A DNA stretch of 51,117 nt from Bacteroidales bacterium (GTDB lineage: Bacteria; Bacteroidota; Bacteroidia; Bacteroidales; JAADJA01): the NCBI GenBank assembly GCA_026984135.1, contig JALSSR010000152.1, positions 1 through 51,117 on the forward strand, written 5' to 3'. The notes below the pieces were generated by a model. The model was not told the origin of the DNA. It did no database searches and was given only the letters and a program-made list of their open reading frames with translations. Both the position numbers and the translations under genes were made by a program. This document shows positions 3,501-46,081 of this stretch, piece after piece (within the stretch, counting starts at the first letter, position 1; every line of letters begins with the position of its first letter).

Positions 3501-4469
3501 TCATTTTACAGAAAAGTTTCTTCGGAATCAAACTATGACTTTTTGAGATTTTATATTGACGGTGTTCAACAAGCCGAGTGGAGTGGTGAGGTTGACTGGG
3601 AAGAAGTATCGTATCCGGTTACTGCCGGTGATCATACTTTCACCTGGTCGTATGAGAAAGATTACTCCGTATCAAGTGGTGATGACTGCGCTTGGGTTGA
3701 TTTTATCGTATTTCCGTCATTTGGCGGTGCTGCTCCTCTTGCTGTAGCTGCTTCGGCTAATCCTGCCGAAATATGTGCAGGTGAAAGTTCACAGCTAAAT
3801 GCATTTGCAACCGGCGGCTCGGGTAATTATACTTATCAGTGGTCACCTGCAACCGGTTTGAACGATCCGAATATACAAAATCCCGTTGCCACTCCGGACG
3901 AAACAACCGTTTATTCGGTTATTGTTAATGACGGAAGCGACGAAGTTACCGGAGAAGTTACACTTACGGTTAACCCTGTTCCCGAAACACCGACAGTTAC
4001 ACAGCAGGAAAGTATGCTTGTTTCAAGTGCCGAAGAGGGAAATCAATGGTATGACTCCAACGGAGCTATCGAAGGTGCCACGGGACAAACTTACACTCCA
4101 ATGGCAACGGACGATTACTACGTGATAGTTACCAATGAGTTCGGATGCGAGTCGGAGCAATCAAATGTTTATCATTTTATTTATACCGGTGTAATTGAAA
4201 TATCAAGTAATGATAATGTCCTTATTTATCCTAATCCGTTCCTTGATCAGTTTACCGTTGACTACTCTCTGAAAACAGTATCTAAAGTTACAATTACGGT
4301 TTATGATACTTACGGAAGACAAGTTGCAACGGTTAAAAGTGATAATGATGAGACGGCAGGAAATCACAGGGTGATTTTCAATACGGAAAAATTTAATCCA
4401 GGTATCTATTTTTGCAGAATTGAAACCAGCGACTATACGGTTATTAAACGTATAGTACAGTCTAAATAA
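546..4469 (+). CDS. C25 family (gingipain-like) cysteine peptidase with propeptide, Ig-like repeats and T9SS C-terminal domain
   Basis: Signal peptide; C25 motifs (LLVGD, YGRFSA, YTAHC, GNCC, YHLMGDP); DDSNGNNNG repeats; CTD IYPNPF...GIYFCRI...IKRIVQSK. Confidence 0.9.
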
Positions 4470-4537: not shown

Positions 4538-7500
4538 ATGAAAAAGTTAATTGTAGCAATTGCATTGCTAATAACTACCGGTTTGTTTGCCGGAAACGGT
4601 TATGAAGCAACATTCGAGCAACCTGAAAATGGTATTTATCAGGTGAATTTTACAATAGGTAATTATGATTTGACTGAGGTTGCATTTGATGGTGTAACCT
4701 ATTCAAAGATAATTTTTGACGGAAGTGTGCATACAAATATGAAAGGTTTTGCAGAACTTCCTTTCGTCAGTGCATCGGTTATGTTATCACCGGATAAAAA
4801 TGTTTCATTGAAGGTGATTTCATCGGATTATGTGGATATTGACCTTGAGAACCCTATGCTTCCTTCAAGAGGTGTTATTTACAGGGATCAGGACCCTTCG
4901 GCAATACCTTATGAAATAAGTCCGTCTTCATTACGGGATAATTGGTATCCCCAAAATCTGGCAAGGAACACAGCACCGTTTATCATTAAAGATATAAGAG
5001 GTACTTCCGTTTATGTTTATCCTTTCAGATATAATGCCGTACAAAATAAGTTACGTATATATAAATCCGTAACGGTTCAACTGATTGAAAATGAAACTCA
5101 ACCGGTTAATCCTCTTGCCAAAAAACCTTCAAAAATATTACGTGAGATGGACGGGATTTATTCTTCACTCTTTATCAATTATTCCGAAAATAAGGATGAC
5201 CTTACAATAGGACAATTCGGAGATATTTTGGTAATATGCACCGACAGGGATGAGAATGCCATTCAGCCTTATATTCAGTGGAAAAGAGAAAAAGGTTATA
5301 ATGTTTCGTTGGAAGTTGTGGCAACGGGAACAAATGTAAAAACACTTGTTCAAAATGCTTATGATGCAAATAACGATTTGCTTTATGTTCAATTGGTGGG
5401 CGATTGGGCGGATATAAAATGTGATGTGTTAAACGGCTCTTCTCCAATGGACCCCCAACTTGGCTGTGTTGTCGGAAATGATGAAGTTGCGGATATTACA
5501 GTTGGAAGGATATCCTCAAATTCACCTTCGGATGTTACGGTTCAGATTGATAAAATCATTAACTATGAAAAAAATCCCGATATCGGAGCAAGCTGGTATA
5601 GCGCTGCTATAGGAATTGGGTCGGATCAGGGGCCCGGTGACGACGGTGAACTTGACAAGGAGCATATTCAGGTGATATGGGATGATAAGCTTGATCCTTT
5701 TACCTACGAAACATATTCCCCGATTTATGATCCTTCCGCATCCGCGGCAATGGTGTCCACTGCCGTTAATGACGGTGCCGGTATAGTCAACTATTGCGGA
5801 CATGGTTCTCCGACTTCCTGGGGAACAACGGGTTTCAGCAACAATGACGTTTCTGCACTTACAAATGGAGATAAATTACCCATAATCTTTTCCGTTGCTT
5901 GCAATAACGGTAATTTTCAGGATCCGGGCGACTGTTTCGGTGAAGCCTGGTTAAAGAAAGAAAACGGAGGAGCCGTTATGTTTCTCGGAGCTACTATTAG
6001 CCAGCCATGGGACCCACCTATGCGGGGCGAAGACTATTTTGACGATATTCTTACGGGTGGATACGATTACTCCCAGCATCCGGATCAAAACGGAATTTCT
6101 ACGGACGAGGGTAGAACGACTATAGGTGCAATTGTGTTTAACGGTTTTGTATTAATGACTACGGAATCCAACGGGGCAAGCGATTGGGAAACGGCCAAGA
6201 CCTGGACTATTTTCGGAGATGCCTCTATGCAACCGCGTACGGATATACCCGGTGCAATTACTCTTTCAAATGAAACGGTAATGGCCGGTATTCCTTATAC
6301 TACAACGGTAAGTGGTCCCGATGGACCTGTTGAAGGGGCAATGGTTTGTATTTCAAACGGAACGGATTACTTTTCAGGTGTTACGGATGCAAGCGGAAGT
6401 GTCTCAATAAATCATACTTTGGTTCCGGGTGCGGCAAAGAGGGTAGTAACGGGCTTTAATCTCGAAATCGTTTATGAAGATATTACGGTTGCATCTTCAA
6501 ATACACCCTGGATTGTTGCAGGCGATTGTGTGATTGACGATTCCAACGGGAACAACAACGGACAGGCCGATTACGGTGAATCCGTATTGCTTAATGTTAC
6601 AGCTGAAAATGTCGGAACGGTTGCCGCTTCGGGAATTAATGCTGTAATTACTTCTACCGATCCTTTTATCACAATTACGGATGATTCATTCTCGTACGGT
6701 GATATTGCCGGTGGCCAGACCGTTAGCGGCGACGGTGCGTTTGCCGTTACAATTGCGGGCGATGCTCCCGATAATTATAATGCTGTTATTGATATTGAAT
6801 TTACCGACGGAAATAAAGATTCATGGACATCTTCATTTACAATTGATTTACATGCTCCTGTTATGGAAATGGGAAATTATACAATTGATGATGCTTCCGG
6901 CAACGGAAACGGAAATATTGACCCGGGCGAAACCGTTGAAATTACAATACCCGTTTTAAACTCCGGTTCTTCGGATGCTTATTCCGTTGTCGGTGAGCTT
7001 GTATGTAATGATGCTTATATTACAATTGCAAACGCTTCCCAAAATTACGGAGATATAAATGCTGCCGGACAAGCACAGGCAGTCTTTACCGTAACGGCTG
7101 AAGCAGTTACTCCTGTGGGACATCAGGTTACTTTTGATTTTGAAATTTCCGCCGATTTGATCACTTCCGTACAGGAATCTTTTGATTTGGTGATTGGCCA
7201 GATACCTGTAGTTGTAATTGACCTTGACGGTAATACCAATTCGGGGCCTGCTATGGTTGATGCTATGGCAAATAATGGTGTTGCAGCCGAATATGTTGCA
7301 TCCTTTCCCGATGATCTGAATTTGTATTCTTCGGTATTTCTGTGTCTTGGTGTTTATCCTGATAATCATACTCTTACGGATAGTGAAGGGCAGTCTCTGG
7401 CAGACTATCTAAATGCAGGCGGTAACCTTTATATGGAAGGTGGAGATACCTGGTTTTACGATCCGCAAACAGTTGTCCATCCTATGTTCAGCATTGATCC

Positions 7501-8605
7501 GCAAGCAGACGGTTCGGGTGACTTATCAACAATAGCCGGGAAAACGGGAACGTTTACCGAAGGAATGTCCTTCGGTTATGGAGGTGATAACAACTGGATT
7601 GACCAGATTGGTGCGTCAAATTCCGCCTTTGTTATTCTTGAAAATCAGGCTCCGGTTTACGGTACCGGGGTTGCTTACGATCAGGGAACATATAAAACAA
7701 TAGGTGCTTCTCATGAGTTTGGAGGGCTTGATGACGGTGCATCACCTTCAACTAAGGATGAATTGATGAATGAATACCTTGTATTCTTCGGGATTGGCGG
7801 TTCCGAGTTACAGGCATACTTCTCTGCCGACGACCCGGTTGTTTGTGAAGGAGGAACAGTTACATTCAGTGATTTGTCAACCGGAGGTGCCACTTCCTGG
7901 AGTTGGGAATTCCCGGGTGGTGACCCCGCTACTTCAACGGAGCAAAATCCTGTTGTCACTTATAACACTGTTGGAGTTTATGATGTTACATTAACAATTT
8001 CCGACGGTACTAATACAAACTCATACACAAAAGACAATTACATAAATGTTGTAGTGGCACCTGAGGCTCCTGCAGCTCCACAAGGTGATGCCGACGTTTG
8101 TACAAACTTTGTTATGACATCGGAATATACAACAACCGGAGTTGCGGGTGCTGATTCGTATGTGTGGATGATTACACCTGCCGATGCCGGAACTATATCG
8201 GGAACGGAAACAACCGGAACAGTTGAATGGACAGATAGTTGGGAAGGAACTGCAACAATAACGGTTAAAGGTGTTAACGCTTGCGGCGAAGGAGTTTCCT
8301 CCGAAGGTTTTGACGTTGTTTGTTCAATTTGCACGGGTATTGACGAAATCGGACTTAATGAGGTTTCGGTTTATCCCAATCCGGGCAACGGTCTTTTTAC
8401 TGTCGAGATAAGCGGTTTAAATAGTAAAGACCTTTCTATAAAAGTTCTAAACACTCTGGGAGCGATAGTCTATGATCAGGTAGGAATTGAAACATCTGCC
8501 AACTATAAAACGACAATTGACCTAAGTGAATTGAACAAAGGAGTATATTTCCTTGTTATTAATGGAAACGAGGGTAAAGTTATAAAAAGAATAATTATCC
8601 AATAG
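4538..8605 (+). CDS. C25 family cysteine peptidase with propeptide, PKD domain and T9SS CTD
   Basis: YCGHG (His422) and SVAC (Cys455) give the 33-residue dyad spacing of RgpB; TIFGDASM; PKD motif SWSWEFPGGDP; CTD VYPNPG...GVYFLVI...KRIIIQ. Confidence 0.9.
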   Translation: MKKLIVAIALLITTGLFAGNGYEATFEQPENGIYQVNFTIGNYDLTEVAFDGVTYSKIIFDGSVHTNMKGFAELPFVSASVMLSPDKNVSLKVISSDYVDIDLENPMLPSRGVIYRDQDPSAIPYEISPSSLRDNWYPQNLARNTAPFIIKDIRGTSVYVYPFRYNAVQNKLRIYKSVTVQLIENETQPVNPLAKKPSKILREMDGIYSSLFINYSENKDDLTIGQFGDILVICTDRDENAIQPYIQWKREKGYNVSLEVVATGTNVKTLVQNAYDANNDLLYVQLVGDWADIKCDVLNGSSPMDPQLGCVVGNDEVADITVGRISSNSPSDVTVQIDKIINYEKNPDIGASWYSAAIGIGSDQGPGDDGELDKEHIQVIWDDKLDPFTYETYSPIYDPSASAAMVSTAVNDGAGIVNYCGHGSPTSWGTTGFSNNDVSALTNGDKLPIIFSVACNNGNFQDPGDCFGEAWLKKENGGAVMFLGATISQPWDPPMRGEDYFDDILTGGYDYSQHPDQNGISTDEGRTTIGAIVFNGFVLMTTESNGASDWETAKTWTIFGDASMQPRTDIPGAITLSNETVMAGIPYTTTVSGPDGPVEGAMVCISNGTDYFSGVTDASGSVSINHTLVPGAAKRVVTGFNLEIVYEDITVASSNTPWIVAGDCVIDDSNGNNNGQADYGESVLLNVTAENVGTVAASGINAVITSTDPFITITDDSFSYGDIAGGQTVSGDGAFAVTIAGDAPDNYNAVIDIEFTDGNKDSWTSSFTIDLHAPVMEMGNYTIDDASGNGNGNIDPGETVEITIPVLNSGSSDAYSVVGELVCNDAYITIANASQNYGDINAAGQAQAVFTVTAEAVTPVGHQVTFDFEISADLITSVQESFDLVIGQIPVVVIDLDGNTNSGPAMVDAMANNGVAAEYVASFPDDLNLYSSVFLCLGVYPDNHTLTDSEGQSLADYLNAGGNLYMEGGDTWFYDPQTVVHPMFSIDPQADGSGDLSTIAGKTGTFTEGMSFGYGGDNNWIDQIGASNSAFVILENQAPVYGTGVAYDQGTYKTIGASHEFGGLDDGASPSTKDELMNEYLVFFGIGGSELQAYFSADDPVVCEGGTVTFSDLSTGGATSWSWEFPGGDPATSTEQNPVVTYNTVGVYDVTLTISDGTNTNSYTKDNYINVVVAPEAPAAPQGDADVCTNFVMTSEYTTTGVAGADSYVWMITPADAGTISGTETTGTVEWTDSWEGTATITVKGVNACGEGVSSEGFDVVCSICTGIDEIGLNEVSVYPNPGNGLFTVEISGLNSKDLSIKVLNTLGAIVYDQVGIETSANYKTTIDLSELNKGVYFLVINGNEGKVIKRIIIQ

Positions 8606-17101: not shown

Positions 17102-19330
17102 ATGGAAAAAAGAATTATTGAAAGAAATTATAAAAGTATTTTTGGTCTTGTAAAAAGCAAAAGACTTAAAGATGCCCTTAATCTGTTGAGAGAATTGGTA
17201 CTTGCTTCAGGGAAAGGTGATCTGATCTCGCAATTTGAAGAATTGGATACAACTTACGAAACTTTATTGAAATATGCCGTGGATGGTGTCTCTGACCCTG
17301 AGCGTGATAAAATATATCGTAAACTGCAGGTTTCGGTACTTGAACTGTCTGATATTGCAAGGCAGCAAGCTATTATGAAGGCGAGCAATCAGTATCTTTA
17401 TAATATGAAACGGCAGATCGAGAACAGAGCAGGTCTTGTGAAAGAGGAGGCAATTAAAAGTATTGACAGCCTTGCTTTTGATGATGAACTTGCCAGCGTT
17501 CTGACAGAATCTTTTGTGTCGGCAAAGGACAATAAAAGTGAGTATTTGCGACACCAGGAAACCTTGAGTAAAGTATTTAACCTGATACTCCTGACCGATA
17601 AATTTAAGGAGGCCGACATAAAACTTGTGAAGTCGCTTTGGGTTTCAAAGAATTTCCCGTGGTATGAACAGGCAATTGTTATTAGTGCCCTGACAGTTAG
17701 CTCGATACGATCATTTGATGTTAAAAAAATCGAACTTTTAATGGAGTTTTCTATGGACTCGAATGAACAGATACGACAGAGGGCTTTGGTAGGTTTGTTT
17801 TTTAGCTTGTACATTTATGATTCCAGATTGGAATTTTATCCTGAATTGTTGAAAGAAATCGAAGAATTGAAAGCTATCCCCGAAATCGAAACAAATATAG
17901 AATTCATTGCTATTCAGTTGCTTAAAACCAAAGAGACGGAAAAGATATCCAAAAAACTCAATGAAGAAATATTCCCCGAAGTTGCTAAATTTCAACCGAA
18001 ATTAAAGGATAAACTGGACCTTGACAATATTTTGTCCGATGATTTTATGGAAGATAAAAATCCTGATTGGGAAAGGGTTTTTGAGGATGCTCCCGATCTT
18101 CTTGACAAACTTCAGGAAATATCAAAACTTCAGCTTGAGGGTTCCGATGTTTTTATGGCTGCTTTTTCACGACTGAAAAACTTCTCCTTTTTTGATGAAA
18201 TGATCAACTGGTTCAGACCGTTTCATGTTGATAATTATATAATCAGGGAAGCCCTGAGCCGGGAAGATGAAAGTTTTGATACCGACCTGTTCCTCGATAG
18301 CCTTTCGCAGTCTTTCTTTTTGTGCAATTCCGACAAATACTCGTTCTGTCTTAATATTGAGCAGATGCCGCAGATGCAGAAAAATATGATGCTTGAAATG
18401 TTCCGCGCCGAAACCGAGGGCTTAAAAGAGTTGCAAAAGGAGGATGATGTATTAAATAAATCCACTCACACAAAAAGTATCTATTCCCAATATATACACG
18501 ATTTGTACCGGTTTTACAAGCTTCATCCTTTGAGGAATGAGTTTTCGGATATATTTAAAATGAGATTTGATTTTTATAAAAGCGAATTTTATAAAATTTT
18601 GGTTGAAGATGAGAAGATTATCAGAAACATTGCGGAGTTTTTCTTTGAAAGGGAGTATTATGAACAGGCATTTGAGATTTATAAGGATTTGAATGCCAAA
18701 GGTGATAATTCACTCGAGGTATTTCAAAAAATGGGCTACTGCTCACAAAAACTCCGCAATTATGAGGAGGCTTTAAATTATTATAAAATGGCTGAGCTTT
18801 ACGATACTAACCGCGCTTGGAATATTAAAAAAATTGCGCTCTGTTATCGAAATGTGAAAAATTATGAAGAATCGCTTAAATACTACCTGGAGGCAGAGAA
18901 ATTGGAACCGGATAATCTTTATGTGCAGACTTTCATCGGGCACTCTTATCTTGATCTTAAAGATTATGAAAATGCACTGAAATATTATTTCAAAGTCGAG
19001 TTTCTCGCTCCTGACAACAAGAAGGTTTTACGTCCGATTGCCTGGTGTTCATTTGCACTCGGAAAACTTGAAACGGCAAAGAACTATTATCTTAAACTGA
19101 TTGAAAGTGAAGCCAATAAGTATGACTTTATGAATTTGGGACATGTGGAGTGGTGCCTCGGAAACCGTAAAGCGGCTTTAAAGAACTACAGGCTTTCAAT
19201 AAACAGTAATGACAACAATCTCAAATTGTTTATGGCCGGATTTGAAGAAGATAAAGAACTCATTGTCAAAAACGGGGTAGCACCGGATGAAATTCCCCTG
19301 ATGCTCGATTATCTGAAATATATTCTGTAA
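17102..19330 (+). CDS. Tetratricopeptide repeat protein
   Basis: Long helical ORF with C-terminal TPR-like repeats (MGYCSQKLRNYEEAL, IGHSYLDLKDYENAL, LGHVEWCLG). Confidence 0.8.
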   Translation: MEKRIIERNYKSIFGLVKSKRLKDALNLLRELVLASGKGDLISQFEELDTTYETLLKYAVDGVSDPERDKIYRKLQVSVLELSDIARQQAIMKASNQYLYNMKRQIENRAGLVKEEAIKSIDSLAFDDELASVLTESFVSAKDNKSEYLRHQETLSKVFNLILLTDKFKEADIKLVKSLWVSKNFPWYEQAIVISALTVSSIRSFDVKKIELLMEFSMDSNEQIRQRALVGLFFSLYIYDSRLEFYPELLKEIEELKAIPEIETNIEFIAIQLLKTKETEKISKKLNEEIFPEVAKFQPKLKDKLDLDNILSDDFMEDKNPDWERVFEDAPDLLDKLQEISKLQLEGSDVFMAAFSRLKNFSFFDEMINWFRPFHVDNYIIREALSREDESFDTDLFLDSLSQSFFLCNSDKYSFCLNIEQMPQMQKNMMLEMFRAETEGLKELQKEDDVLNKSTHTKSIYSQYIHDLYRFYKLHPLRNEFSDIFKMRFDFYKSEFYKILVEDEKIIRNIAEFFFEREYYEQAFEIYKDLNAKGDNSLEVFQKMGYCSQKLRNYEEALNYYKMAELYDTNRAWNIKKIALCYRNVKNYEESLKYYLEAEKLEPDNLYVQTFIGHSYLDLKDYENALKYYFKVEFLAPDNKKVLRPIAWCSFALGKLETAKNYYLKLIESEANKYDFMNLGHVEWCLGNRKAALKNYRLSINSNDNNLKLFMAGFEEDKELIVKNGVAPDEIPLMLDYLKYIL

Positions 19331-20119
19331 TTATCTCAATATTAGTTTCTTGATCGTCAATTGATTTTTACCTTCAAGTAATCTGACAAAATAGGGTCCT
19401 TTGGGTAATGATGGTAAGTTTATTCTTTTAACAAACTTACCTCGCTTTATTAATTCCGGTTGGGTTTCAAAAACTTTCATGCCGAGCAAATTGTAAATCT
19501 CCGCTTTTACCATTCTCTCTTTTGCAAGTTTAATATTCAGATTCACAAAAGAAGTTGCGGGATTAGGTGACAAAACAAAATCGTCCGTATCCGTTTTTTC
19601 TTCGGCAACGGCTGTTATCAGATTTCCACCCACACTGACGATTGAATCAATCAAATTTTCCGTTGAGGGTGGATATATCTGCTTCACCGGAATATACCGG
19701 TCAGGAAGAATAACGCAAAGTGTCGGTGTTCCCTGAATGCTGTATGCCATATGAACAGGATTGCCGCCACCGTTCTGTCCGCTGACGTCGGGATAAGTGA
19801 TGCCGTAAACAGAATCGAAATATTGAACGTTTTTGTTGGTGTTTCCTTTGTCAATTCCTATAAAAAAGACATTACCTTCGTTTTCGCCAAAAGCTTCGTA
19901 AGCCGCCTGAACATCAGGTGCATACAACTGGCAAGTACCGCAAGCCGTTGAGAAAAAGTCAACTACGACTATTTTGTTGTCATCAAGTAGTGAAAAGAGT
20001 TCCCAGGTGTTTCCGCTTACATCTTTAACCGTAAAATTTACGGCCGTATCAAGCAATGTTTGGGTGCGACCGGTAATAAACAAAGTAAGCAGTAATGGTA
20101 AGAGTATAATTTTTTTCAT
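19331..20119 (-). CDS. Thioredoxin-fold (redoxin) protein with T9SS CTD
   Basis: Signal peptide; VVVDFFSTACGTC (CxxC); GTPT cis-Pro loop; CTD LSPNPA...GPYFVRL...IKKLILR. Confidence 0.8.
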   Translation of the reverse strand: MKKIILLPLLLTLFITGRTQTLLDTAVNFTVKDVSGNTWELFSLLDDNKIVVVDFFSTACGTCQLYAPDVQAAYEAFGENEGNVFFIGIDKGNTNKNVQYFDSVYGITYPDVSGQNGGGNPVHMAYSIQGTPTLCVILPDRYIPVKQIYPPSTENLIDSIVSVGGNLITAVAEEKTDTDDFVLSPNPATSFVNLNIKLAKERMVKAEIYNLLGMKVFETQPELIKRGKFVKRINLPSLPKGPYFVRLLEGKNQLTIKKLILR

Positions 20120-20286
20120 TTATATTATTTTTATCGTTTCCAAATAACAGACAAATAATTCATAAAATTAGTTGTCCTTACTTTAAAATCCTTACAGGGT
20201 TATACAAAAAAATTTAAGTTTTGTTCAAGATGCCGCAATACGAAAATACCGTTCCCTGATTTTTTCATACCGTTAACTTTTTTTTG

Positions 20287-20317
20287 TTTGCTTTTTGAGA
20301 TTTTATTCCTATATTTG
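20287..20317 (+). promoter_or_regulatory. sigma-A promoter for the first beta-propeller T9SS gene
   Basis: TTTG at 20287-20290, 19-nt spacer, TATATTTG at 20310-20317. Confidence 0.7.
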
Positions 20318-20431
20318 TTGCCAGAACATATACCAAATAATAAGTTTTGCACCTGTTATTAAAAACAAATTAAAAATTTTAATAGTTTTTGAAAGAATTA
20401 AAAATGTCGAATAACACTCTTTAATAAGATT

Positions 20432-22312
20432 ATGAAAACTATATTAATTTTAGCATTTTCCATTTTTACGATTATAGGGCAATCCCAGATACCTGAAATC
20501 ATACGTCAAAAATGTGATGGAACATCATTTGATGATTATAATCCCTGTATTATAGAAAACGGACCCGACTACCTTATGGGCTTTTCAAGGCCATCAAACA
20601 AACAGTATTTTGATAGTACGAAAACCGATTTTAGCATATGCTTGGTTGAAATTGATTCTATGGGGAATTTTATATGGGATAAATTTTACGGGGGAAGTGA
20701 TTTTGACAAACCGGAAAAGATAATAAGAACAACTGACAACGGTTATTATCTTCTCGGGTTAACATTTTCAAATGATGGGGATGTGCAATCATTTAATCAT
20801 GGGGATGGGGATTTATGGGTTGTGAGATTGGATCAGAATAAAAATATACTTTGGGAAAAATGTTTTGGAACTCCATATTATGAAGAGCCGAGGGATATTA
20901 TTTTAACTCCTGACGGAGGTGTTGTGGTTATAGGCCAAATACACGGTGCAGGGGGAGATGTTTCTGTTTATTATGGTTATTATGATATCTGGATGTTCAA
21001 ACTTGATCCCACCGGCAACTTGGAGTGGGAAAAAACCATTGGAAACGAAGAAGAAGACAAGGGTTTTTCAATAATGCTAAATAGTCTGAATAACATAATG
21101 TTGATTGGTGCAACTACTAAAAACGGCGGGCTTGTTGATTGTTATCCTAATGAGGGATGGCCGGATGTATGGCTTGTGGAACTTGATTTACAGGGAAATA
21201 TCTTAGCACAGAATTGCTATGGTGGCAGTTACTATGATTTGGGAATTGATTTACTGGAAATTGATGACGGTTTTATACTTATGTGTTATACCGATTCAAA
21301 TGACGGAGATGTTTCAGGGTTACACGGTACTCCTAACGGCTCCTCCGATATCTGGATTTTAAAAATTGATGGACAGTTTAATATTGTTTGGCAAAAGTGC
21401 TTAGGCGGGTATTCAAGTGAATCACCTGACTATATTTTAAAAACTGAAGATGCCGGTTATATGATATTTGGCAGTACATCGTCCCACGACGGAGATGTTG
21501 CCGGAAACCATTCATCATCTTTTGGTAATGATTCTGATGTATGGGTAGTAAAAATCAATCAATCGGGAGAAATAGAATGGCAACAATGTTATGGCGGTTG
21601 GGGAAGCGAATGGATGTGGAACAAAAACTGTGTTTTGAAAAAAGACGATTATGATTTCATAATAACCTCCTCAACAGACTTTGGCCCGTCATATGATGTT
21701 CTGTGCTCTCCGGGTTACCTTGATAGGGATTCCTGGATATTTGAAATAAAAGACTGCGACATTTACACCCCTTCAACACCCGAAACACCTGCGGGTGACG
21801 ATACGGTCTGCAACTCCTCAGGCGGCACAAGCTTTATGAGCATACATAAAGCACAAAACGTCGATACCTACGAATGGAGAATACTGCCGGCAAATTCGGG
21901 TTCGTTGACTCAGACGGATACATCGGCTGTCATCAGTTGGAACCCGTCTTTTGAGGGTACTTCATCCGTTATCGTACGAAGCAATAATGAATGCGGAACG
22001 AGCCAATGGTCGGAGCCGCACCACGTTATCGTGGTCAACTGCATAGGTATAGCGGAGCAGCAGTCCGGAGACATCAGCCTTAAGGTTTATCCCAATCCCG
22101 CAAGGGAGTTTGTGGTGTTTGAATTGAACAAAGCATCCCGCACCGGCACCATTGTCATCTACAACTCCACCGGAACGGAAACGGCAAGGCTGCAAACAAA
22201 CGGCAGCCGTACAACGTGGCACACCGGAAACATCAAACCCGGATTGTTCTTTTACAGAGTGGAAACGGAAGAAAAGGTTTTGAGCGGGAAGATTGTGATA
22301 AGCGGAGGGTAA
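20432..22312 (+). CDS. T9SS-secreted protein: beta-propeller-like repeats, PKD-like stalk, CTD
   Basis: Repeats of W.K.(Y/F)GGS..D and DxWxxKxD.xG.(I/L).W of about 55-60 aa; CG.SQWSEP stalk; CTD VYPNPAREF. Confidence 0.8.
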   Translation: MKTILILAFSIFTIIGQSQIPEIIRQKCDGTSFDDYNPCIIENGPDYLMGFSRPSNKQYFDSTKTDFSICLVEIDSMGNFIWDKFYGGSDFDKPEKIIRTTDNGYYLLGLTFSNDGDVQSFNHGDGDLWVVRLDQNKNILWEKCFGTPYYEEPRDIILTPDGGVVVIGQIHGAGGDVSVYYGYYDIWMFKLDPTGNLEWEKTIGNEEEDKGFSIMLNSLNNIMLIGATTKNGGLVDCYPNEGWPDVWLVELDLQGNILAQNCYGGSYYDLGIDLLEIDDGFILMCYTDSNDGDVSGLHGTPNGSSDIWILKIDGQFNIVWQKCLGGYSSESPDYILKTEDAGYMIFGSTSSHDGDVAGNHSSSFGNDSDVWVVKINQSGEIEWQQCYGGWGSEWMWNKNCVLKKDDYDFIITSSTDFGPSYDVLCSPGYLDRDSWIFEIKDCDIYTPSTPETPAGDDTVCNSSGGTSFMSIHKAQNVDTYEWRILPANSGSLTQTDTSAVISWNPSFEGTSSVIVRSNNECGTSQWSEPHHVIVVNCIGIAEQQSGDISLKVYPNPAREFVVFELNKASRTGTIVIYNSTGTETARLQTNGSRTTWHTGNIKPGLFFYRVETEEKVLSGKIVISGG

Positions 22313-22691: not shown

Positions 22692-23120
22692 GTGGGAGTT
22701 AAAAAAGAAAATATCGAAAAAGAAATGTTTTACGGAGCAAGTCCCGAAATATTTCGACGTGCTTTGGAATTAAGAAAGAATATGACCAAAGCCGAAAAAA
22801 AACTTTGGGCGGCTTTGAGAAGAAAACAAGTTAACGGGAAACGTTTCAGACGGCAACATCCCATAGGTAAATTTATTGTGGATTTTTACTGCCACGAAGT
22901 AAAACTTGTAATAGAGCTTGACGGAAGCATTCATAATTTTCAAGAACAAAAAGAATATGACTTGGGTAGAAGTGAAGATATTCAACAACTTGGTATTAAA
23001 ATTATCAGATTTACAAATAAACAAGTTATGAACAATTTAAATAAGGTAATAGCCGATATTGAAAGCGAAATAAAAATAATAAATGACGAAACAATCAAAG
23101 ATGGAGAAAGTTTGCATTAG
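22692..23120 (+). CDS. DUF559 family endonuclease-domain protein (Vsr-like, PD-(D/E)XK fold)
   Basis: ALELRKNMTKAEKKLWAALR...FRRQHPIGKFIVDFYC...LVIELDGSIH. The start could instead be the ATG of MFYG. Confidence 0.9.
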   Translation: MGVKKENIEKEMFYGASPEIFRRALELRKNMTKAEKKLWAALRRKQVNGKRFRRQHPIGKFIVDFYCHEVKLVIELDGSIHNFQEQKEYDLGRSEDIQQLGIKIIRFTNKQVMNNLNKVIADIESEIKIINDETIKDGESLH

Positions 23121-23456: not shown

Positions 23457-25265
23457 ATGAGTATAAAATTAACAATAACGGCGATATTTATAACATTGGC
23501 ATCTTTGGCGCAATTGCCGGAGATAACTATGCAGCAATGCTATGATAATTCCGTCAGCGATATTCCGGCGGGTATTTGCGAAACCGAAAGCGGGTATGCC
23601 GTTTTAACGGAGGTTTATAATGCCACGGGCACTCCCGGATTTCACGCTTTACGTGATTTTCATATTAGGTTTGTTGATACCCTCGGAAACACTCTGTTTG
23701 AAAAATGCTATGGCGGGTCCAAATCGGAGTATCCGAAAAAAATTCTGAAAACCGGTGACGGTAATTTTCTTTTGTTCGGAAAAACAAATTCCGTGGACGG
23801 TGATTTACCCGGAAATATTTGGGGATATAACGACTTATGTATCATTAAAATAAATCAGAACGGTGATATAATATTTTCAAAAACTTACGGCAGTACGGGC
23901 GATGATTCTCCGGGTAGCATCATATTGCTTCCTGACGGCGGTTTTATGTTTTGCGGAACTATATACGGCGACGGCGGTGATGTTGCAAATTATTACGGCG
24001 ACGGTGATATGTGGATTTGCAAGTGCGACCAGAACGGAAATATTGTTTCGCAAATGACTTTCGGCGACGATAAGGAGGATAAATGTAATGACATTTTGTT
24101 GAATGATGGAAATATAATTGTGGGCGGTGCAAAATTCATAAAACAAAGTTTAGTAACAATGTACGGTGCCCGGTTATTCGAAACGGACTTTCAGGGAAAT
24201 ATTCTCTGGGACAGTTTTATTCCCGACTCGGTATCTAATCATCTGGATTCAAGTATTGAAGCACTTTCCATTCTGAAAACCACCGACGGATATATGACAT
24301 TATGTAGTTCTGTTGGAGGTACGGATTATAATATGTTACTAAAAACTGATAATCAGGGACAATTGGAATGGAAAAAGAAATACGGGACCTATGGAGGTTA
24401 TGCAGCTCCCGCATATATAACACAATTAGACGACGGCAATTATCTGTTATTAGGTTGCGATTCAAAAGCTCCTTGCAACCACGCACTTCCTTCTCAATCA
24501 ACAACCGATATTTGGTTAGCCGAACTCGCTACAGACGGAGACATAATACTTCAGCAATGTTACGGCGGATACGGAGATGAAAATCTAAATCTTAATTGTG
24601 TAATAAAAAAGAGTGATTATCATTATGTAATTGCAGGAGATTCCGATTCCGACAATTCTGGTGATGTTACTTGCGAAAACGACGACCGGAATGTATGGCT
24701 TGTGGAAATGCAACGCTGCCCCGGTTACGAACCCGGCGTGCCCGATATTCCCTCAGGCCCCGACACAGTCTATTCAGCCAACCATCCCCAAATAACCTTC
24801 ACCATTGAACCACCACAAAATGCCTGGACTTTCAACTGGAAAATGGAACCCGACACAGCGGGCGAACTGACAGGCTACGGACTCTATGCCGAAGTTGATT
24901 GGGCACCGGACTTTAGCGGTACGGTGCAACTGTTCGCCCAAAGTGTCAACTACTGCGGCGAAAGCCAATGGTCCGAACCGAAAACCGTTTCGGTGTTCAA
25001 TACAATAGGAACGGATGAATATAACACAAATGAAGTTAGTTTAAAGGTTTATCCCAATCCTTCAAACGGAGATTTCATAATAGAAAGCGCTTTGTTGAAC
25101 GGCAAGTTCAATGTTAAAATTTATGATATAACGGGAAATATGGTTGTCAATGAATTTCTTCAATCGAACCGCTTGAAAACCAACCTGCAGGACGGAATCT
25201 ATTTTGTGAAAATCATAGACGGTGAAAATGTCTATTTAAGGAAGATAGTCATTGAAAATAAATAG
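23457..25265 (+). CDS. T9SS-secreted beta-propeller-like protein, paralog of 20432..22312
   Basis: Same repeat type (FEKCYGGSKSE, QQCYGGYGDE), CGESQWSEP stalk, CTD VYPNPSNG...GIYFVKI; TATTTTTG -7 box at 23396-23403. Confidence 0.8.
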   Translation: MSIKLTITAIFITLASLAQLPEITMQQCYDNSVSDIPAGICETESGYAVLTEVYNATGTPGFHALRDFHIRFVDTLGNTLFEKCYGGSKSEYPKKILKTGDGNFLLFGKTNSVDGDLPGNIWGYNDLCIIKINQNGDIIFSKTYGSTGDDSPGSIILLPDGGFMFCGTIYGDGGDVANYYGDGDMWICKCDQNGNIVSQMTFGDDKEDKCNDILLNDGNIIVGGAKFIKQSLVTMYGARLFETDFQGNILWDSFIPDSVSNHLDSSIEALSILKTTDGYMTLCSSVGGTDYNMLLKTDNQGQLEWKKKYGTYGGYAAPAYITQLDDGNYLLLGCDSKAPCNHALPSQSTTDIWLAELATDGDIILQQCYGGYGDENLNLNCVIKKSDYHYVIAGDSDSDNSGDVTCENDDRNVWLVEMQRCPGYEPGVPDIPSGPDTVYSANHPQITFTIEPPQNAWTFNWKMEPDTAGELTGYGLYAEVDWAPDFSGTVQLFAQSVNYCGESQWSEPKTVSVFNTIGTDEYNTNEVSLKVYPNPSNGDFIIESALLNGKFNVKIYDITGNMVVNEFLQSNRLKTNLQDGIYFVKIIDGENVYLRKIVIENK

Positions 25266-41573: not shown

Positions 41574-43151
41574 TTATTCTTTAATAACTTTCAAAATATC
41601 CGATACCTCATTTCCTTTTTGAATGCTGATAAAATATATACCGCTCTGAAGGTTTGAGCCGGCTACTATTCTACCCGTTTGTTCCGTGACAGGCTTCTCC
41701 TCGACAATCCTTCCCGTAAGGTCATAAATTCTGTACGATGCACCGGTAGTGACAGGGCTGTCGAAAAAATATTCCGCTACAATTTGAGTGCGAAAGGGAT
41801 TGGGATAAACAGCCAGACCTATTTGTTCAGGGTTTTCGATTCCTGTGGTAACCGAATAGCTCATTTCAACATTCAGATTTGTAACAACACCGTTCTCAAG
41901 GATTACATCGTCTAAAACTTTTGTGTCGTATCCCTCTTTTGAAAACTCAAAGGTGAATGTTCCTTCTTCAAGTGTGCCGAATCCGAAAGTTCCCGTATTG
42001 TCCGTTTGTCCTCCGAAGTCAATGCCGGTAACACTCCAGATAACATCACTTAGAGGTTCTCCGCTTATGCTGTCAAGCACGATGCCTTCAATTCTGGAAG
42101 CGTGTTTGTAGTCAACCGATAAAATGTAAAGTCCCTCTTCAATGTCGGAAGCAAGTATGTTGCCTGAAGGCAGGAAAGGATAAACACCCCAGCAACCTGC
42201 ATAACCGCCGCCTGAAAAAGGCGAAGTGTCAAAATTTGCAACTTCAATCATATCCGCCGGATTGCTGACGTCATGAATAACCACTCCATCCTTGTAATAA
42301 GAGGTTATGATGAAATCATTCATAAAGTGAGTATTATGCGGAATGACACCGCTGCCCGGGTTTGACTGAACTTTGTCCAATTCCGCAATATTATTAATAT
42401 CCGAAACATCGTAAGCTGCCACATAACCGCTTCCGACTTCATCGGTAGTGAAAACATAATTACCATTATCCGATACCCAGGAGTTGTGGGTGAAATTGCC
42501 AGGTGTATAGGCAGTTGCCATAACGAAGGGGGCTGCCGGATTCGTAACATCAACCATGGCAAAAAATCCGTTGTATATCGCACTTCCGTATAAAATGTTA
42601 TTTTTAACCATCCCGTCGTGCAGATAATAATCATTAAATCTTCCCAGTTCAACCGGATTCATCGGATCTTGAGTAAGGTCGCATATTATTGCTCCTCCGT
42701 TGCCGTTATCGGCACCGAAAATATATAATCTTCCGTTTTCATCAATATATATGTTGTGCGCATCCGAAAAAGGATAACCCGAACCCGTAAAAAAAGATGT
42801 ATTGGTTATTTCCCCGTCAGGTAGCGGGCTCATATCAACAATAAATACCCCTCCGGTACTTTCGGATGAAACATAGGCATAGTCACCCCAGGTCTTTATG
42901 TCGCGCCAGATGGAAGGATCCTCATTGCCGAAATAGACTTCAACAGGATTTGCAGGTTCCGTGACATCCACAATGGAAAGCCCTTCATAAACTCCCACAA
43001 GTGCATATTCGTTACCCGTTTCATCAACATAGCCCCAAACATCACTGATGTCGTTTGTATATTCAAGTTTCCCGAGTAACCCCATATTGAGTTGTGCAAA
43101 GGTTATAAAAGTAATGTTGAAAATGGCAATGGAAATAAAAAATCGTTTCAT
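41574..43151 (-). CDS. Choice-of-anchor B / LVIVD-repeat protein with carboxypeptidase-regulatory-like domain and T9SS CTD
   Basis: SDVWGYVDETGNEYALVG, AHNIYID, THNSW, PHNTH, GCWGVYPFLPSG; CTD VYPNPF. Confidence 0.8.
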   Translation of the reverse strand: MKRFFISIAIFNITFITFAQLNMGLLGKLEYTNDISDVWGYVDETGNEYALVGVYEGLSIVDVTEPANPVEVYFGNEDPSIWRDIKTWGDYAYVSSESTGGVFIVDMSPLPDGEITNTSFFTGSGYPFSDAHNIYIDENGRLYIFGADNGNGGAIICDLTQDPMNPVELGRFNDYYLHDGMVKNNILYGSAIYNGFFAMVDVTNPAAPFVMATAYTPGNFTHNSWVSDNGNYVFTTDEVGSGYVAAYDVSDINNIAELDKVQSNPGSGVIPHNTHFMNDFIITSYYKDGVVIHDVSNPADMIEVANFDTSPFSGGGYAGCWGVYPFLPSGNILASDIEEGLYILSVDYKHASRIEGIVLDSISGEPLSDVIWSVTGIDFGGQTDNTGTFGFGTLEEGTFTFEFSKEGYDTKVLDDVILENGVVTNLNVEMSYSVTTGIENPEQIGLAVYPNPFRTQIVAEYFFDSPVTTGASYRIYDLTGRIVEEKPVTEQTGRIVAGSNLQSGIYFISIQKGNEVSDILKVIKE

Positions 43152-43423
43152 AACATTTAATTTTAAATTAGTATTACAAGTATTTATTAGTAAATTGAAT
43201 TTGCCTTAAAATTCAATCTTAGTCTTTGATATACCGCAATTTATATAAAAAAACAACAGTATGAATAATACGATTCAAAAAGGGAATAGTATCATAAAAA
43301 CATATATTGCCCTTTTATTGTTCAATCTTAACGGTATTATTTTGAATCATTCTAAATTTTAAAAATAATTTCCTAATACTCTTATGTTTAGATTTGATTT
43401 TTTGACAGCAAACTGTTTATAAT

Positions 43424-43454
43424 TTTGCGATATTGAAATTATATTTTACTTTTG
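43424..43454 (+). promoter_or_regulatory. sigma-A promoter for the cytochrome gene
   Basis: TTTG at 43424-43427, 19-nt spacer, TACTTTTG at 43447-43454. Confidence 0.7.
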
Positions 43455-43497: not shown

Positions 43498-44946
43498 ATG
43501 AAAACACGCATTACTTTAATTGTAATTGTTATCACGGGAATTTTTCTTTTCGAATCTTTTTACAATCCTGGCGATGATCCCAAATCCGGTCAATATGTTA
43601 TAATCGGTTGGAATGACCTTGGGATGCACTGCGCCAACAAAGATTTCAGTAAATTTGCAATTCTTCCTCCCTATAATAATCTGCATGCACAGGTTGTAAA
43701 AGTGGGTGATGCAGATAACAATCCAGAACTTGTAACAACAAATGTAAATGTTACTTATGAGGTGCCGGGAAACACTTATTCGGTCGGTAAGACAAATTTC
43801 TGGGATTATGAAGATCAGCTTTTCGGAGTAAATCTTCCGGATAATACGGGCTTGACAGGTGCAGGGCTTTCAGGTGATATGGAAATTCAGGATAACTATT
43901 TCATAAAGGAAGGTATCCCTTTGACGCCTTATACCGATGATAATCTTACGGACGAAGACCCCTATCAACTTGCTTTACTGCAAGCTTATGACGGGCAAAA
44001 TAATCTTTTGGCAAGTACACAACCGGTAATTCCCGTCTCAAACGAGATAAGCTGTGTCAGCTCGGGTTGCCATTCAAGTGAGAATGATATTTTGTATGAA
44101 CATGAGGAGGAGGGAGGCTTCGACCCTAACAACACGCCGATTTTATGTGCCGAGTGCCACTCTTCCAATGCTTTGGGAACTCCAGGCACACCGGGTTTGG
44201 AGTCGTTGTCGGAGGTAATACACGATCAGCATGCCGAAGAAACGAATGATTGTTACAAATGTCATCCCGGGTCACAAGCTCAATGCCTGAGGGGTGTGAT
44301 GCATGGAGCCGGACTGGTATGTCAGGATTGTCATGGTAGTGTGGCACATGTTGCCCAGACCATAGCCAACGGCCGCGAACCCTGGCTTGAGGAGCCTAAA
44401 TGCGGAGCAACCGACTGCCACGGACCTGATTATGCCGAAGAACCGGGTAAACTGTTCAGACAATCAAAGGGACACAGCGACCTTTATTGCAGTGCTTGTC
44501 ATGGCTCACCCCACGCAATCCTGCCGTCCACAAACGACAGGGATAATGTGCAGAATATTGCTCTTCAGGGATATGAGGGTACTTTGCAGGAATGTACGGT
44601 TTGCCACGGAGTAGCACCAACCGGAGCCGGCCCTCACGGTATTTTGGCTACGGCAGTTAAGGAAATTCCTAACTCAGGCATTACTTCCGATGCTATTGAA
44701 AAGATTTATCCCAATCCAGCTTCCGGAAACCTGACAATTGCTTTTACCGTTAACGAAAGGTCTAAAGTTGATATTTCTCTTTATACCCTTGCCGGACAAA
44801 AGGTTGCAACCGCTTTGAATCATACTCTTTCGCAAGGTGAATATGAAGCGTCATTCAACGTTTCGGAACAGGAAGCCGGTGTTTATCTTATAGTACTTAA
44901 CAACGGAAAATCTACCGATAATATGAGAGTGGTAATTACAAAATAA
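43498..44946 (+). CDS. Multiheme c-type cytochrome (5 CXXCH plus 2 CX4CH) with T9SS C-terminal sorting domain
   Basis: Hydrophobic N-terminus; GWNDLGMHC motif; CVSSGCH, CAECH, CYKCH, CQDCH, CGATDCH, CSACH, CTVCH; CTD IYPNPASG...LAGQKV...GVYLIVL...RVVITK. Confidence 0.9.
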   Translation: MKTRITLIVIVITGIFLFESFYNPGDDPKSGQYVIIGWNDLGMHCANKDFSKFAILPPYNNLHAQVVKVGDADNNPELVTTNVNVTYEVPGNTYSVGKTNFWDYEDQLFGVNLPDNTGLTGAGLSGDMEIQDNYFIKEGIPLTPYTDDNLTDEDPYQLALLQAYDGQNNLLASTQPVIPVSNEISCVSSGCHSSENDILYEHEEEGGFDPNNTPILCAECHSSNALGTPGTPGLESLSEVIHDQHAEETNDCYKCHPGSQAQCLRGVMHGAGLVCQDCHGSVAHVAQTIANGREPWLEEPKCGATDCHGPDYAEEPGKLFRQSKGHSDLYCSACHGSPHAILPSTNDRDNVQNIALQGYEGTLQECTVCHGVAPTGAGPHGILATAVKEIPNSGITSDAIEKIYPNPASGNLTIAFTVNERSKVDISLYTLAGQKVATALNHTLSQGEYEASFNVSEQEAGVYLIVLNNGKSTDNMRVVITK

Positions 44947-44962
44947 TGTAATATCCGGTTTG

Positions 44963-46081
44963 TTAAAGTCTTGTAAGCCATTTGGCTAAAAAAACATCAT
45001 AAACATAGTACTTAGCATCTTTTTTGTAGATCATCTTTTTCTCCAAAAGAGATTTTATACCTCGACGAACCGTGGATGTGGTGCTTAAGTTGTATTTTTT
45101 AATGAATTTGGAGGTTGTAACCTGACTTATTCCTTCTTCTTTTGCGAGGGCTATAAGTAAATCCCATTGTTGTTTTGTCAGTAAATCTCTATATTCGGAA
45201 AAATAAACTTCATTCTCGTTTAAGATATTAAAAAAGACCTCTTTAACAACTTTGTTGTCAATGTTTTTTTCCTCTGAACCGTATAACTTATTACATAAAT
45301 ACTGAACATAATAGGTGTGTCGTCGGGTCATTGTTAAAATGTTTTTTATCGCCTCATCCTCTATTGAAATAGCATTATTATTGAAGTTTGTTTTGATGAA
45401 TTCCGAATACTCCGATGCAGGTATTTCTTCAAGGTGCATAAATTCGGTACTTTGATAAAAGGGTCGTTTTGCATCGGTGAACATACTTGTTAACAAATGC
45501 TTGTCGCTGCCTGAAAAAATAAAGTTGACATTTAATAATTTTTGAATATTCGTTCTAAGCAGTGCCTCCACATTTTTCTCGGGATAATCGGCAATTTGTT
45601 GAAACTCGTCAATTGCTATTACAACAGGTGTTTCCCGACTCCTTTGCTCGAGAAATCCGAATATCTCCTCTATTGTATTTACACCTGAGGCTTCGTTATT
45701 TATATTGAATGAAAAAACAGGGGCTCCCGTAAAGCTATCATAAGTTATTGTCGGCCTAATGCTGCTTATAAATGATTTTATCATTCTCTTTATTTTTTCG
45801 GGAAAAGATTCTTTTTCGGTAAGCAGACTTGTGCCGAATTTATTAATAAATCCCAATAGTGAAGATGTATGATATATGTCAAAATAGACTAAATCATAAT
45901 CCTTTGTATTGTTCAGCTTATTAAAAACATGATGTATCAGACCTGTCTTCCCCATTTTCCGTATTGATGACAAGGTGAGATTTCGTTGGTTTTCTATCGC
46001 ATTAATTATTCTTTTTGTCTCATCTTTCCTGTTGCAAAAATATTCAGGACCTGCATACTCTTTTAGTGTAAAAGGATTCAT
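44963..46081 (-). CDS. AAA+ family ATPase with C-terminal winged helix (archaeal-ATPase-like)
   Basis: MNPF...YFCNR, SIRKMGKT (Walker A), IAIDEFQ (Walker B), FIFSGS, and a C-terminal DVFLAKWL. Confidence 0.82.
   Translation of the reverse strand: MNPFTLKEYAGPEYFCNRKDETKRIINAIENQRNLTLSSIRKMGKTGLIHHVFNKLNNTKDYDLVYFDIYHTSSLLGFINKFGTSLLTEKESFPEKIKRMIKSFISSIRPTITYDSFTGAPVFSFNINNEASGVNTIEEIFGFLEQRSRETPVVIAIDEFQQIADYPEKNVEALLRTNIQKLLNVNFIFSGSDKHLLTSMFTDAKRPFYQSTEFMHLEEIPASEYSEFIKTNFNNNAISIEDEAIKNILTMTRRHTYYVQYLCNKLYGSEEKNIDNKVVKEVFFNILNENEVYFSEYRDLLTKQQWDLLIALAKEEGISQVTTSKFIKKYNLSTTSTVRRGIKSLLEKKMIYKKDAKYYVYDVFLAKWLTRL

Follow-up and report, generated by a model that had tools for sequence, protein, structure and literature searches.

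Multiheme cytochromes of Gram-negative bacteria are known to reach the cell exterior by lipoprotein export via the type II secretion system (T2SS), in porin-cytochrome complexes or by filament assembly. The characterised cargoes of the type IX secretion system (T9SS) are hydrolases, adhesins, gliding proteins and non-covalent heme binders. We analyzed a stretch of 51,117 nucleotides from a Bacteroidales bacterium (contig JALSSR010000152.1 of GenBank assembly GCA_026984135.1; in the following, the window), in which one gene encodes a 482-residue protein that consists of a core with seven c-type heme sites and a T9SS type A C-terminal sorting domain (CTD). Judging from its sequence, the protein is probably a T9SS cargo that is a holo-cytochrome, and we lean towards the explanation that the exported holo-protein serves as an electron-transfer module on the cell surface or after release. 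By class, it would be an outer-surface multiheme cytochrome of a kind already known, for which the route of export and anchoring is new.

The CTD was evident from profiles as well as from structure prediction. PF18962 matched residues 403-479 with 50.1 bits (cut-off 27) and TIGR04183 matched residues 403-480 with 43.3 bits (cut-off 23), the latter match ending two residues before the stop. In the AlphaFold2 model, the domain formed a seven-strand sandwich with predicted local distance difference test (pLDDT) values of 83-94. Foldseek matched it to 8glk_D, the CTD of NucA in a translocon complex (template modelling score (TM) 0.74, root mean square deviation 3.4), and to 8qb1_A, the CTD of mirolase (TM 0.71). 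With scores above both curated cut-offs and a CTD-like modelled fold, the tail is the canonical T9SS CTD that the original prediction had described. Like these type A cargoes, the window protein has a C-terminal beta-sandwich of about 80 residues; it also has a putative N-terminal export signal and is accompanied by the T9SS core and dozens of sibling cargoes in the same genome. SprA (2563 bits), PorU (1333 bits, two copies), PorV (510 bits) and GldM (360 bits) were all found above curated cut-offs, and at least 55 further open reading frames (ORFs) of the genome had a CTD detectable with that of the window protein as query. For cytochrome c maturation, one CcsBA-like ORF of 1054 residues was found on contig C183 (PF01578, 141.8 bits; WWD-type motif WGRYWGWDPKETW). 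As the C terminus scored as a CTD and the genome contained both a T9SS and a CcsBA-type synthase, nothing came out against the claim at the level of sequence.

We propose that, after export by Sec, the protein would receive hemes at its seven sites in the periplasm from the genome's only CcsBA-type synthase. Once folded, the holo-protein would cross the T9SS, directed by its type A CTD. The end point would be either attachment to the cell surface or release; the sequence does not say which. The motifs, the CTD, the genes for secretion and maturation and the exchange of tails across the family are observations, whereas heme loading, export, ligation and redox partners are inferred.

The difference from the characterised T9SS cargoes lies in the cofactors, as a covalently heme-loaded multiheme cytochrome was not found as a T9SS cargo in the literature. 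A literature search that paired T9SS or Por secretion with either multiheme cytochromes or extracellular electron transfer turned up a single incidental paper on Marinifilaceae, in two versions, in which each term occurred once. It found no paper linking the two subjects, in agreement with the earlier statement that no characterised example was known. Searches combining Maribellus with cytochrome, and dockerin with multiheme, gave nothing relevant to the family described below. Large multiheme cytochromes of anaerobic methanotrophic (ANME) archaea are fused to S-layer or dockerin/cohesin modules (PMC9012536), and secreted multiheme cytochromes are predicted for wastewater Bacteroidota and Ignavibacteria (PMC11495043). 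The likeness to the window protein is that a multiheme module is placed on the lineage's own surface anchor, the sequences being unrelated. In the parts read, neither paper connected T9SS with the cytochromes, and neither 'T9SS' nor 'type IX' appeared in PMC11495043. Members of the family bear the NCBI label 'T9SS type A sorting domain-containing protein'; the combination of cytochrome and CTD has therefore been annotated, though not interpreted.

A motif script run on the window protein located CX4CH at residues 186 and 302 and CXXCH at residues 217, 252, 275, 331 and 366. These five canonical and two longer-spaced sites coincided exactly with the seven heme motifs of the original prediction. 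All 14 motif cysteines and all 7 motif histidines were invariant in an alignment of 64 homologues and also in a set of 61 sequences, which means that the motifs are not there by chance. Within the heme domain, a c7-like match (PF14522, residues 216-279, 27.8 bits) was above its cut-off of 24.8 and a c3-like match (PF14537, residues 304-371, 22.3 bits) was below its cut-off of 25. Matches resembling PF14522 (hemes 2-4) and PF14537 (hemes 5-7) recurred in 61 of the 61 family cores scanned. Spare histidines for distal ligation had also been predicted, and the 64-homologue alignment yielded seven outside the motifs: H44, H202, H242, H245, H339 and H380 were invariant and H326 was conserved in at least 90% of the sequences. 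M268 and C263 were likewise invariant. Seven conserved spare histidines for seven hemes favor electron transfer over catalysis. We are fairly confident, on these grounds, that the protein would be an electron carrier rather than a catalyst, and the core is accordingly proposed as an electron-transfer module and not an enzyme.

One of the seven histidines, H44, lies in the N-domain, which matched no Pfam or NCBIfam model. The GWNDLGMHC loop that had been noted there was indeed present, with the conservation given in Table 1. H44 (or M43) of this loop could serve as a distal heme ligand, and a pairing of C45 with C263 is possible. The model of the core had a predicted TM score of 0.82 and a mean pLDDT of 80 and showed a beta N-domain of about ten strands (residues 33-180) followed by a mostly helical, loop-rich heme domain; neither this model nor that of the full protein contains hemes or other cofactors. 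H44 sat in a low-confidence loop of the modelled N-domain. Its position there, together with the seven spare histidines, would fit hemes that are probably all bis-His ligated, with H44 as a ligand bridging N-domain and heme domain. The conserved core would then be the functional unit, its N-domain packed against the seven-heme domain. Foldseek searches with the core model gave a best E value of 0.009 to p53-like sandwiches, which was treated as not meaningful, and those with the full model recovered the CTD and otherwise nothing but spurious beta-sandwiches. When the PDB was searched by sequence and by profile, using the protein and the core alignment as queries, all matches below E = 1 were to the CTD.

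By sequence, the core of 356 residues, i.e. the beta-sandwich N-domain plus the seven-heme domain, is part of a large uncharacterised family. A word-indexed search gave more than 5000 matches; the best 120 were full-length with at least 54% identity, and 84 of these 120 had PF18962. An exhaustive search with the core alone (residues 30-385) returned 341 representative clusters at E ≤ 1e-30 and 937 at E ≤ 1e-10. Cores with 55-86% identity occurred in named genomes of Bacteroidales, Lentimicrobiaceae, Cytophagia, Ignavibacteria, Calditrichia and Zixibacteria, and the cultured carriers of the family are Maribellus sediminis and M. mangrovi. In both core domains, 28-30% of the alignment columns were invariant; signal, linker and CTD were not strongly conserved. 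Within the order of the window organism the distribution was patchy, the family being present in 12 of 201 genomes and absent from the single genome of the same genus.

Among described cytochromes, MtrC, OmcA, MtrF and UndA of Shewanella resemble the window protein in that a beta-domain alternates with a multiheme domain and in the location predicted for it at the outer face of the cell. Relatives with a double core, [beta + 7 hemes] x 2, mirror the MtrC-type arrangement [beta + 5 hemes] x 2. The MtrC-type model PF22113 gave 13.7 bits for the window protein against a cut-off of 30, and 16 of 61 family cores reached E < 0.01. Unlike the MtrC type, the window protein lacks a lipobox (no N-terminal cysteine), the T2SS-type lipoprotein route and MtrAB-like partner genes; its unit has seven hemes with two CX4CH sites, and no Foldseek match connected the two. 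The Geobacter CxxxxCH/CxxCH cytochromes (TIGR01904) and the triheme c7/c3 modules share with the family the paired CX4CH...CXXCH units. They have no counterpart to its N-domain or CTD, and the named relatives of the family are not Desulfuromonadia. TIGR01904 scores remained below the cut-off of 27 for the window protein (16 bits) and for relatives (20-23 bits).

An origin of the core in metal-reducing deltaproteobacteria, which had been suggested, was not borne out by these TIGR01904 scores or by the relatives found. The close named relatives belong to the Fibrobacteres-Chlorobi-Bacteroidetes (FCB) group, and the distant ones (36-45% identity) to Thermodesulfovibrionales, Nitrospirota, Blastocatellia (Acidobacteriota), Sumerlaeaceae and Anaerolineae, where their annotations do not go beyond 'cytochrome c3 family' or 'multiheme c-type cytochrome'. 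One close relative was labelled Desulfosarcina; it is probably mis-binned, because it lies on a short contig of 2.7 kb and has a T9SS CTD. The suggested link likely stems from the weak, sub-threshold similarity to TIGR01904.

The part of the protein that follows the core proved to be exchangeable. Tails were surveyed in 79 family ORFs from the fetched loci, the classes 'dockerin', 'ext620' and 'ext550' being set by pattern and eye unless confirmed by Pfam. A T9SS CTD was present in 45 ORFs, a dockerin-like tail with a double Ca-loop in 13 (PF00404 was detected in P0120), a 225-residue extension in 5 and a 170-residue extension in another 5, three of which were tandem double cores with 14 heme sites. 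Two Maribellus proteins had a MopE-like motif and a weak CTD. CTD-bearing and 620-residue paralogues were frequently adjacent. On a maximum-likelihood tree of the cores, the T9SS label required 10 tail changes, with well-supported branches forcing at least 7, and the T9SS forms of Caldithrix were nested within a dockerin clade. The window protein fell into an all-T9SS Bacteroidales clade of nine with a support of 95. Its CTD matched best the CTDs of orthologues and not those of proteins from the same genome, from which we conclude that the fusion is old and was inherited in this clade. The suggested fusion of the core to a host CTD thus holds for the family, in which tails were swapped repeatedly, and not for the clade of the window protein, where the CTD came with the core. 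Several of the distant relatives had lipoprotein signals followed by Gly/Ser/Pro linkers, and one had an SLH domain. The variety of surface tails, along with these anchors, argues for a core that acts at or beyond the cell surface; it is the strongest indirect argument for such a location that the sequences offer.

Further features of the tails were observed. In the dockerin-type tails of loci L026, L027, L033, L034, L043, L077 and L082, the last two residues were in nearly every case a conserved Cys-Pro (...PACP, ...PHCP), perhaps itself a signal for processing or anchoring. Loci L014, L019 and L022 encoded proteins of 905-942 residues with two complete cores in tandem (10 CXXCH plus 4 CX4CH). 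The 225-residue extension, represented by residues 386-626 of P0037 and found in CTD-less paralogues of 613-626 residues, had no Pfam or NCBIfam match. The same module occurred at the extreme C terminus of about 45 different large ORFs of the genome (phmmer E values from 1e-76 to 1e-47), for example on contigs C208 (20740-22341, minus strand), C95, C108 and C69. From its sequence, it looks like a second C-terminal module for sorting or anchoring, undescribed and in heavy use, with dockerin-like D-x-N-x-D-G loops.

A number of observations weigh against an exported electron carrier of the kind proposed here. The searches of the PDB and with Foldseek yielded no structural or experimental relative of known location, and no RNA runs were found for the window gene or its Maribellus orthologue; the DNA runs pointed to a hydrothermal vent metagenome. 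The notion that tail type follows the presence of a T9SS was rejected: each of the 23 hosts tested gave a SprA match (22 above the cut-off), the 13 dockerin-tailed hosts among them, and the tail is not simply set by the secretion system available. The segment after the hydrophobic run of the signal (LFES/FYNP, LFESFYNP) is conserved and is not a canonical A-x-A cleavage site. This last point could indicate a periplasmic carrier, whose CTD is unused or inefficient, or whose N-terminal helix stays uncleaved as an inner-membrane anchor, and which shuttles electrons among periplasmic redox enzymes; the many periplasmic and membrane cytochromes of the genome would be possible partners. We regard this as very unlikely, given that the CTD scores well above its cut-offs and has been kept and inherited with the core throughout the clade, that other lineages swapped it for other surface modules without loss, and that many orthologues have canonical cleavable signals (...FAQ/Q) immediately before the core.

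Outer-surface cytochromes are less usually conserved to the degree seen in the core (55-86% identity across phyla) than enzymes or proteins bound to one fixed partner, and this adds to the points just listed. A secreted redox enzyme is conceivable in which a heme near an invariant N-domain pocket (W38-N-D-L-G-M-H44, K98, T99, W102 and others) turns over a sulfur or nitrogen oxyanion or peroxide. The unusual conservation includes the N-domain, the invariant polar residues resemble a binding site, and H44 is lost in some distant relatives (P0260, with GMQA, and P0241), which could leave a heme open there. In the subfamily, however, the seven conserved spare histidines match the seven hemes, and the motif scan of the window protein found neither a CXXCK site nor a heme site with a long spacer. 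Profiles of catalytic multiheme families (NrfA, HAO, octaheme tetrathionate reductase (OTR) and MccA) were not matched even at E = 1, and the sole multiheme family listed was NrfH, the non-catalytic electron-donor subunit, at an E value of 0.92 and below cut-off. Run as a positive control, the OTR-like octaheme protein of the same genome matched TIGR04315 at 565 bits, above the cut-off; the HAO-like octaheme gave a match as well, only to hydrazine dehydrogenase and at 63.6 bits against a cut-off of 900. A secreted enzyme is quite unlikely in our view, though the conservation across phyla and the invariant polar residues of the N-domain still speak for it.

For such a carrier, the partners would most likely be ones excluded from the cell, such as Fe/Mn minerals, sulfur, humics or other cells. 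The supply of electrons is the weakest point of this proposal. Clustering of about 985 ORFs from 79 loci revealed no partner gene, the largest non-family cluster occurring in 8 loci; across 74 loci, nothing but the family's own paralogues was conserved next to it, and few loci had other cytochrome genes within 10 kb. No MtrB/PioB porin was found in the genome, and none of its ORFs exceeded 12 CXXCH motifs. A 12-heme protein of the genome was rejected as a co-occurring partner, since the four other genomes of the order panel that encode it all lack the family, and among the 201 genomes the two overlap only in that of the window. Taken together, these results leave no visible way for respiratory electrons across the outer membrane, and they leave the predicted role in extracellular electron transfer a hypothesis. 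The source genome, a metagenome assembly from a hydrothermal vent sample (4.17 Mb, 307 contigs, 92% complete), is fragmented, so that a missing gene is weak evidence here. From sequence, participation of the window protein in a respiratory extracellular electron-transfer chain appears possible, if somewhat doubtful.

The missing conduit or partner would also fit an exported protein whose role is not energy conservation, be it Fe(III) reduction for iron uptake, detoxification of oxidants, a redox buffer or 'capacitor' of the matrix, or adhesion to minerals. The gene is standalone, accessory and patchy in its distribution, and the dockerin-type tails fit a matrix or scaffold function. On the other hand, seven closely spaced hemes are costly for scavenging or adhesion, no iron-uptake genes are linked, and the tandem paralogues and 14-heme double-core fusions suggest selection for electron-carrying length or capacity. 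A non-energetic role is unlikely on balance. Returning to extracellular electron transfer, one could also imagine the core as the outermost module of a route widespread among FCB bacteria. A T9SS, dockerin or 225-residue tail would display it, where Shewanella and Geobacter use the lipoprotein/T2SS route, and its electrons would come through an unrecognised outer-membrane component or by self-association via the GWNDLGMHC loop, with a histidine donated between subunits as in cytochrome filaments. This extension is speculative, and we would not expect it to hold in full.

The genome encodes further multiheme proteins, none of which carried a CTD on inspection of the sequences: the 12-heme protein, which has a C-terminal anchor, a cytochrome b with 11 hemes, the OTR-like and HAO-like octahemes, two 7-heme/TPR proteins and an ActA-like protein. 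The cytochrome b protein is a 920-residue ORF (contig C209, 6283-9495, minus strand) in which a cytochrome b-like membrane domain is fused to 11 CXXCH sites. It follows a small Rieske-type gene, with genes for a molybdopterin oxidoreductase, an NrfD-like protein and sulfur-handling proteins nearby (all assigned by eye). On contig C36 (8513-12726, plus strand), a porin-like gene of 459 residues without NCBIfam match precedes Rieske and cytochrome b genes (by eye) and the HAO-like octaheme. On the same contig (4946-8169, minus strand), the OTR-family protein adjoins a b-type cytochrome fused to PAS-like repeats. In locus L036 of one Bacteroidales genome, ORFs with 20 and 26 CXXCH motifs (17367-21067, plus strand) lie 6-8 kb downstream of a family member and may represent a PCC3-like conduit cluster near a T9SS cytochrome; such ORFs were absent from the other loci and from the genome of the window.

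If the proposed explanation is true, T9SS export of holo-cytochromes would be a fourth route to the exterior, and the range of T9SS cargo would extend to cofactor-loaded redox proteins. A surface redox chemistry that current marker sets miss may also be open to many uncultured members of the Bacteroidales, Ignavibacteria, Calditrichia and Zixibacteria in sediments, sludge and vents. The idea is directly testable with the cultured Maribellus carriers and the T9SS genetics available in Flavobacterium johnsoniae.

The features of the gene and its upstream region are collected in Table 1. The gene is flanked by a divergent gene upstream (41574-43151) and a convergent gene downstream (44963-46081) and is therefore a single transcription unit. 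The original prediction of a standalone gene was thus upheld by the orientation of the neighbors. As for a promoter of its own, the TAnnTTTG boxes in the upstream spacer are a plausible candidate by sequence and nothing firmer, because the pattern is not enriched over the whole window (69 observed against 62.5 expected).

Table 1. Features of the cytochrome gene and its upstream region (positions in the window)
Feature	Residues	Position	Strand	Basis
Whole gene P0001, heptaheme c-type cytochrome with T9SS type A CTD	1-482	43498-44946	+	ORF (ATG start, stop codon 44944-44946), profile and motif scans
Candidate promoter, three Bacteroidota-type TAnnTTTG boxes (43389, 43420, 43447)		43389-43454	+	Located in 346-bp spacer, 21% GC
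Putative N-terminal export signal, MKTR plus 14-residue hydrophobic run; cleavage site not canonical	1-22	43498-43563	+	Sequence; modelled helix at residues 2-21
N-domain, all-beta sandwich	31-185	43588-44052	+	28% of columns invariant; model
GWNDLGMHC loop	37-45	43606-43632	+	W38-H44 invariant, C45 at least 90% conserved (64 homologues)
Heme domain, two CX4CH-led repeats	186-385	44053-44652	+	Profile matches
Heme site 1, CVSSGCH (CX4CH)		44053-44073	+	Motif script and alignment
Heme site 2, CAECH		44146-44160	+	Motif script and alignment
Heme site 3, CYKCH		44251-44265	+	Motif script and alignment
Heme site 4, CQDCH		44320-44334	+	Motif script and alignment
Heme site 5, CGATDCH (CX4CH)		44401-44421	+	Motif script and alignment
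Heme site 6, CSACH		44488-44502	+	Motif script and alignment
Heme site 7, CTVCH		44593-44607	+	Motif script and alignment
Linker, poorly conserved	386-402	44653-44703	+	Alignment
T9SS type A C-terminal sorting domain	403-482	44704-44943	+	Profiles, model, Foldseek

Two further comparisons were set aside. The GC content of the core (47%, compared with 38.6% for the genome) was not counted as a sign of recent transfer, because coding for a sequence rich in Gly, Pro, Cys, His and Ala raises GC. An empty-site comparison with the same-genus genome G070 was uninformative, as the flanking DUF3810 gene is missing there too.

The neighbors of the gene in the window are unrelated to redox processes and encode M48 and M3 peptidases, an LVIVD/T9SS protein, an AAA ATPase, a DUF3810 protein and a Fib_succ_major protein. 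The 626-residue ORF at 20432-22312 was considered as a paralogue of the cytochrome and rejected, being an unrelated T9SS protein. Together with the ORF at 23457-25265, also on the plus strand, it forms a pair of paralogous proteins of about 600 residues with repeated ...YGG...D/GDV motifs and, by eye, CTD-like C termini (...YPNP...GIYF...). Between the two lies a small ORF (22692-23120) with, by eye, a DUF559/Vsr-type endonuclease fold. Two adjacent giant ORFs, at 546-4469 and 4538-8605 (1307 and 1355 residues, both on the plus strand), each matched the middle of the PorU sortase model (positions about 491-672), with scores below threshold.

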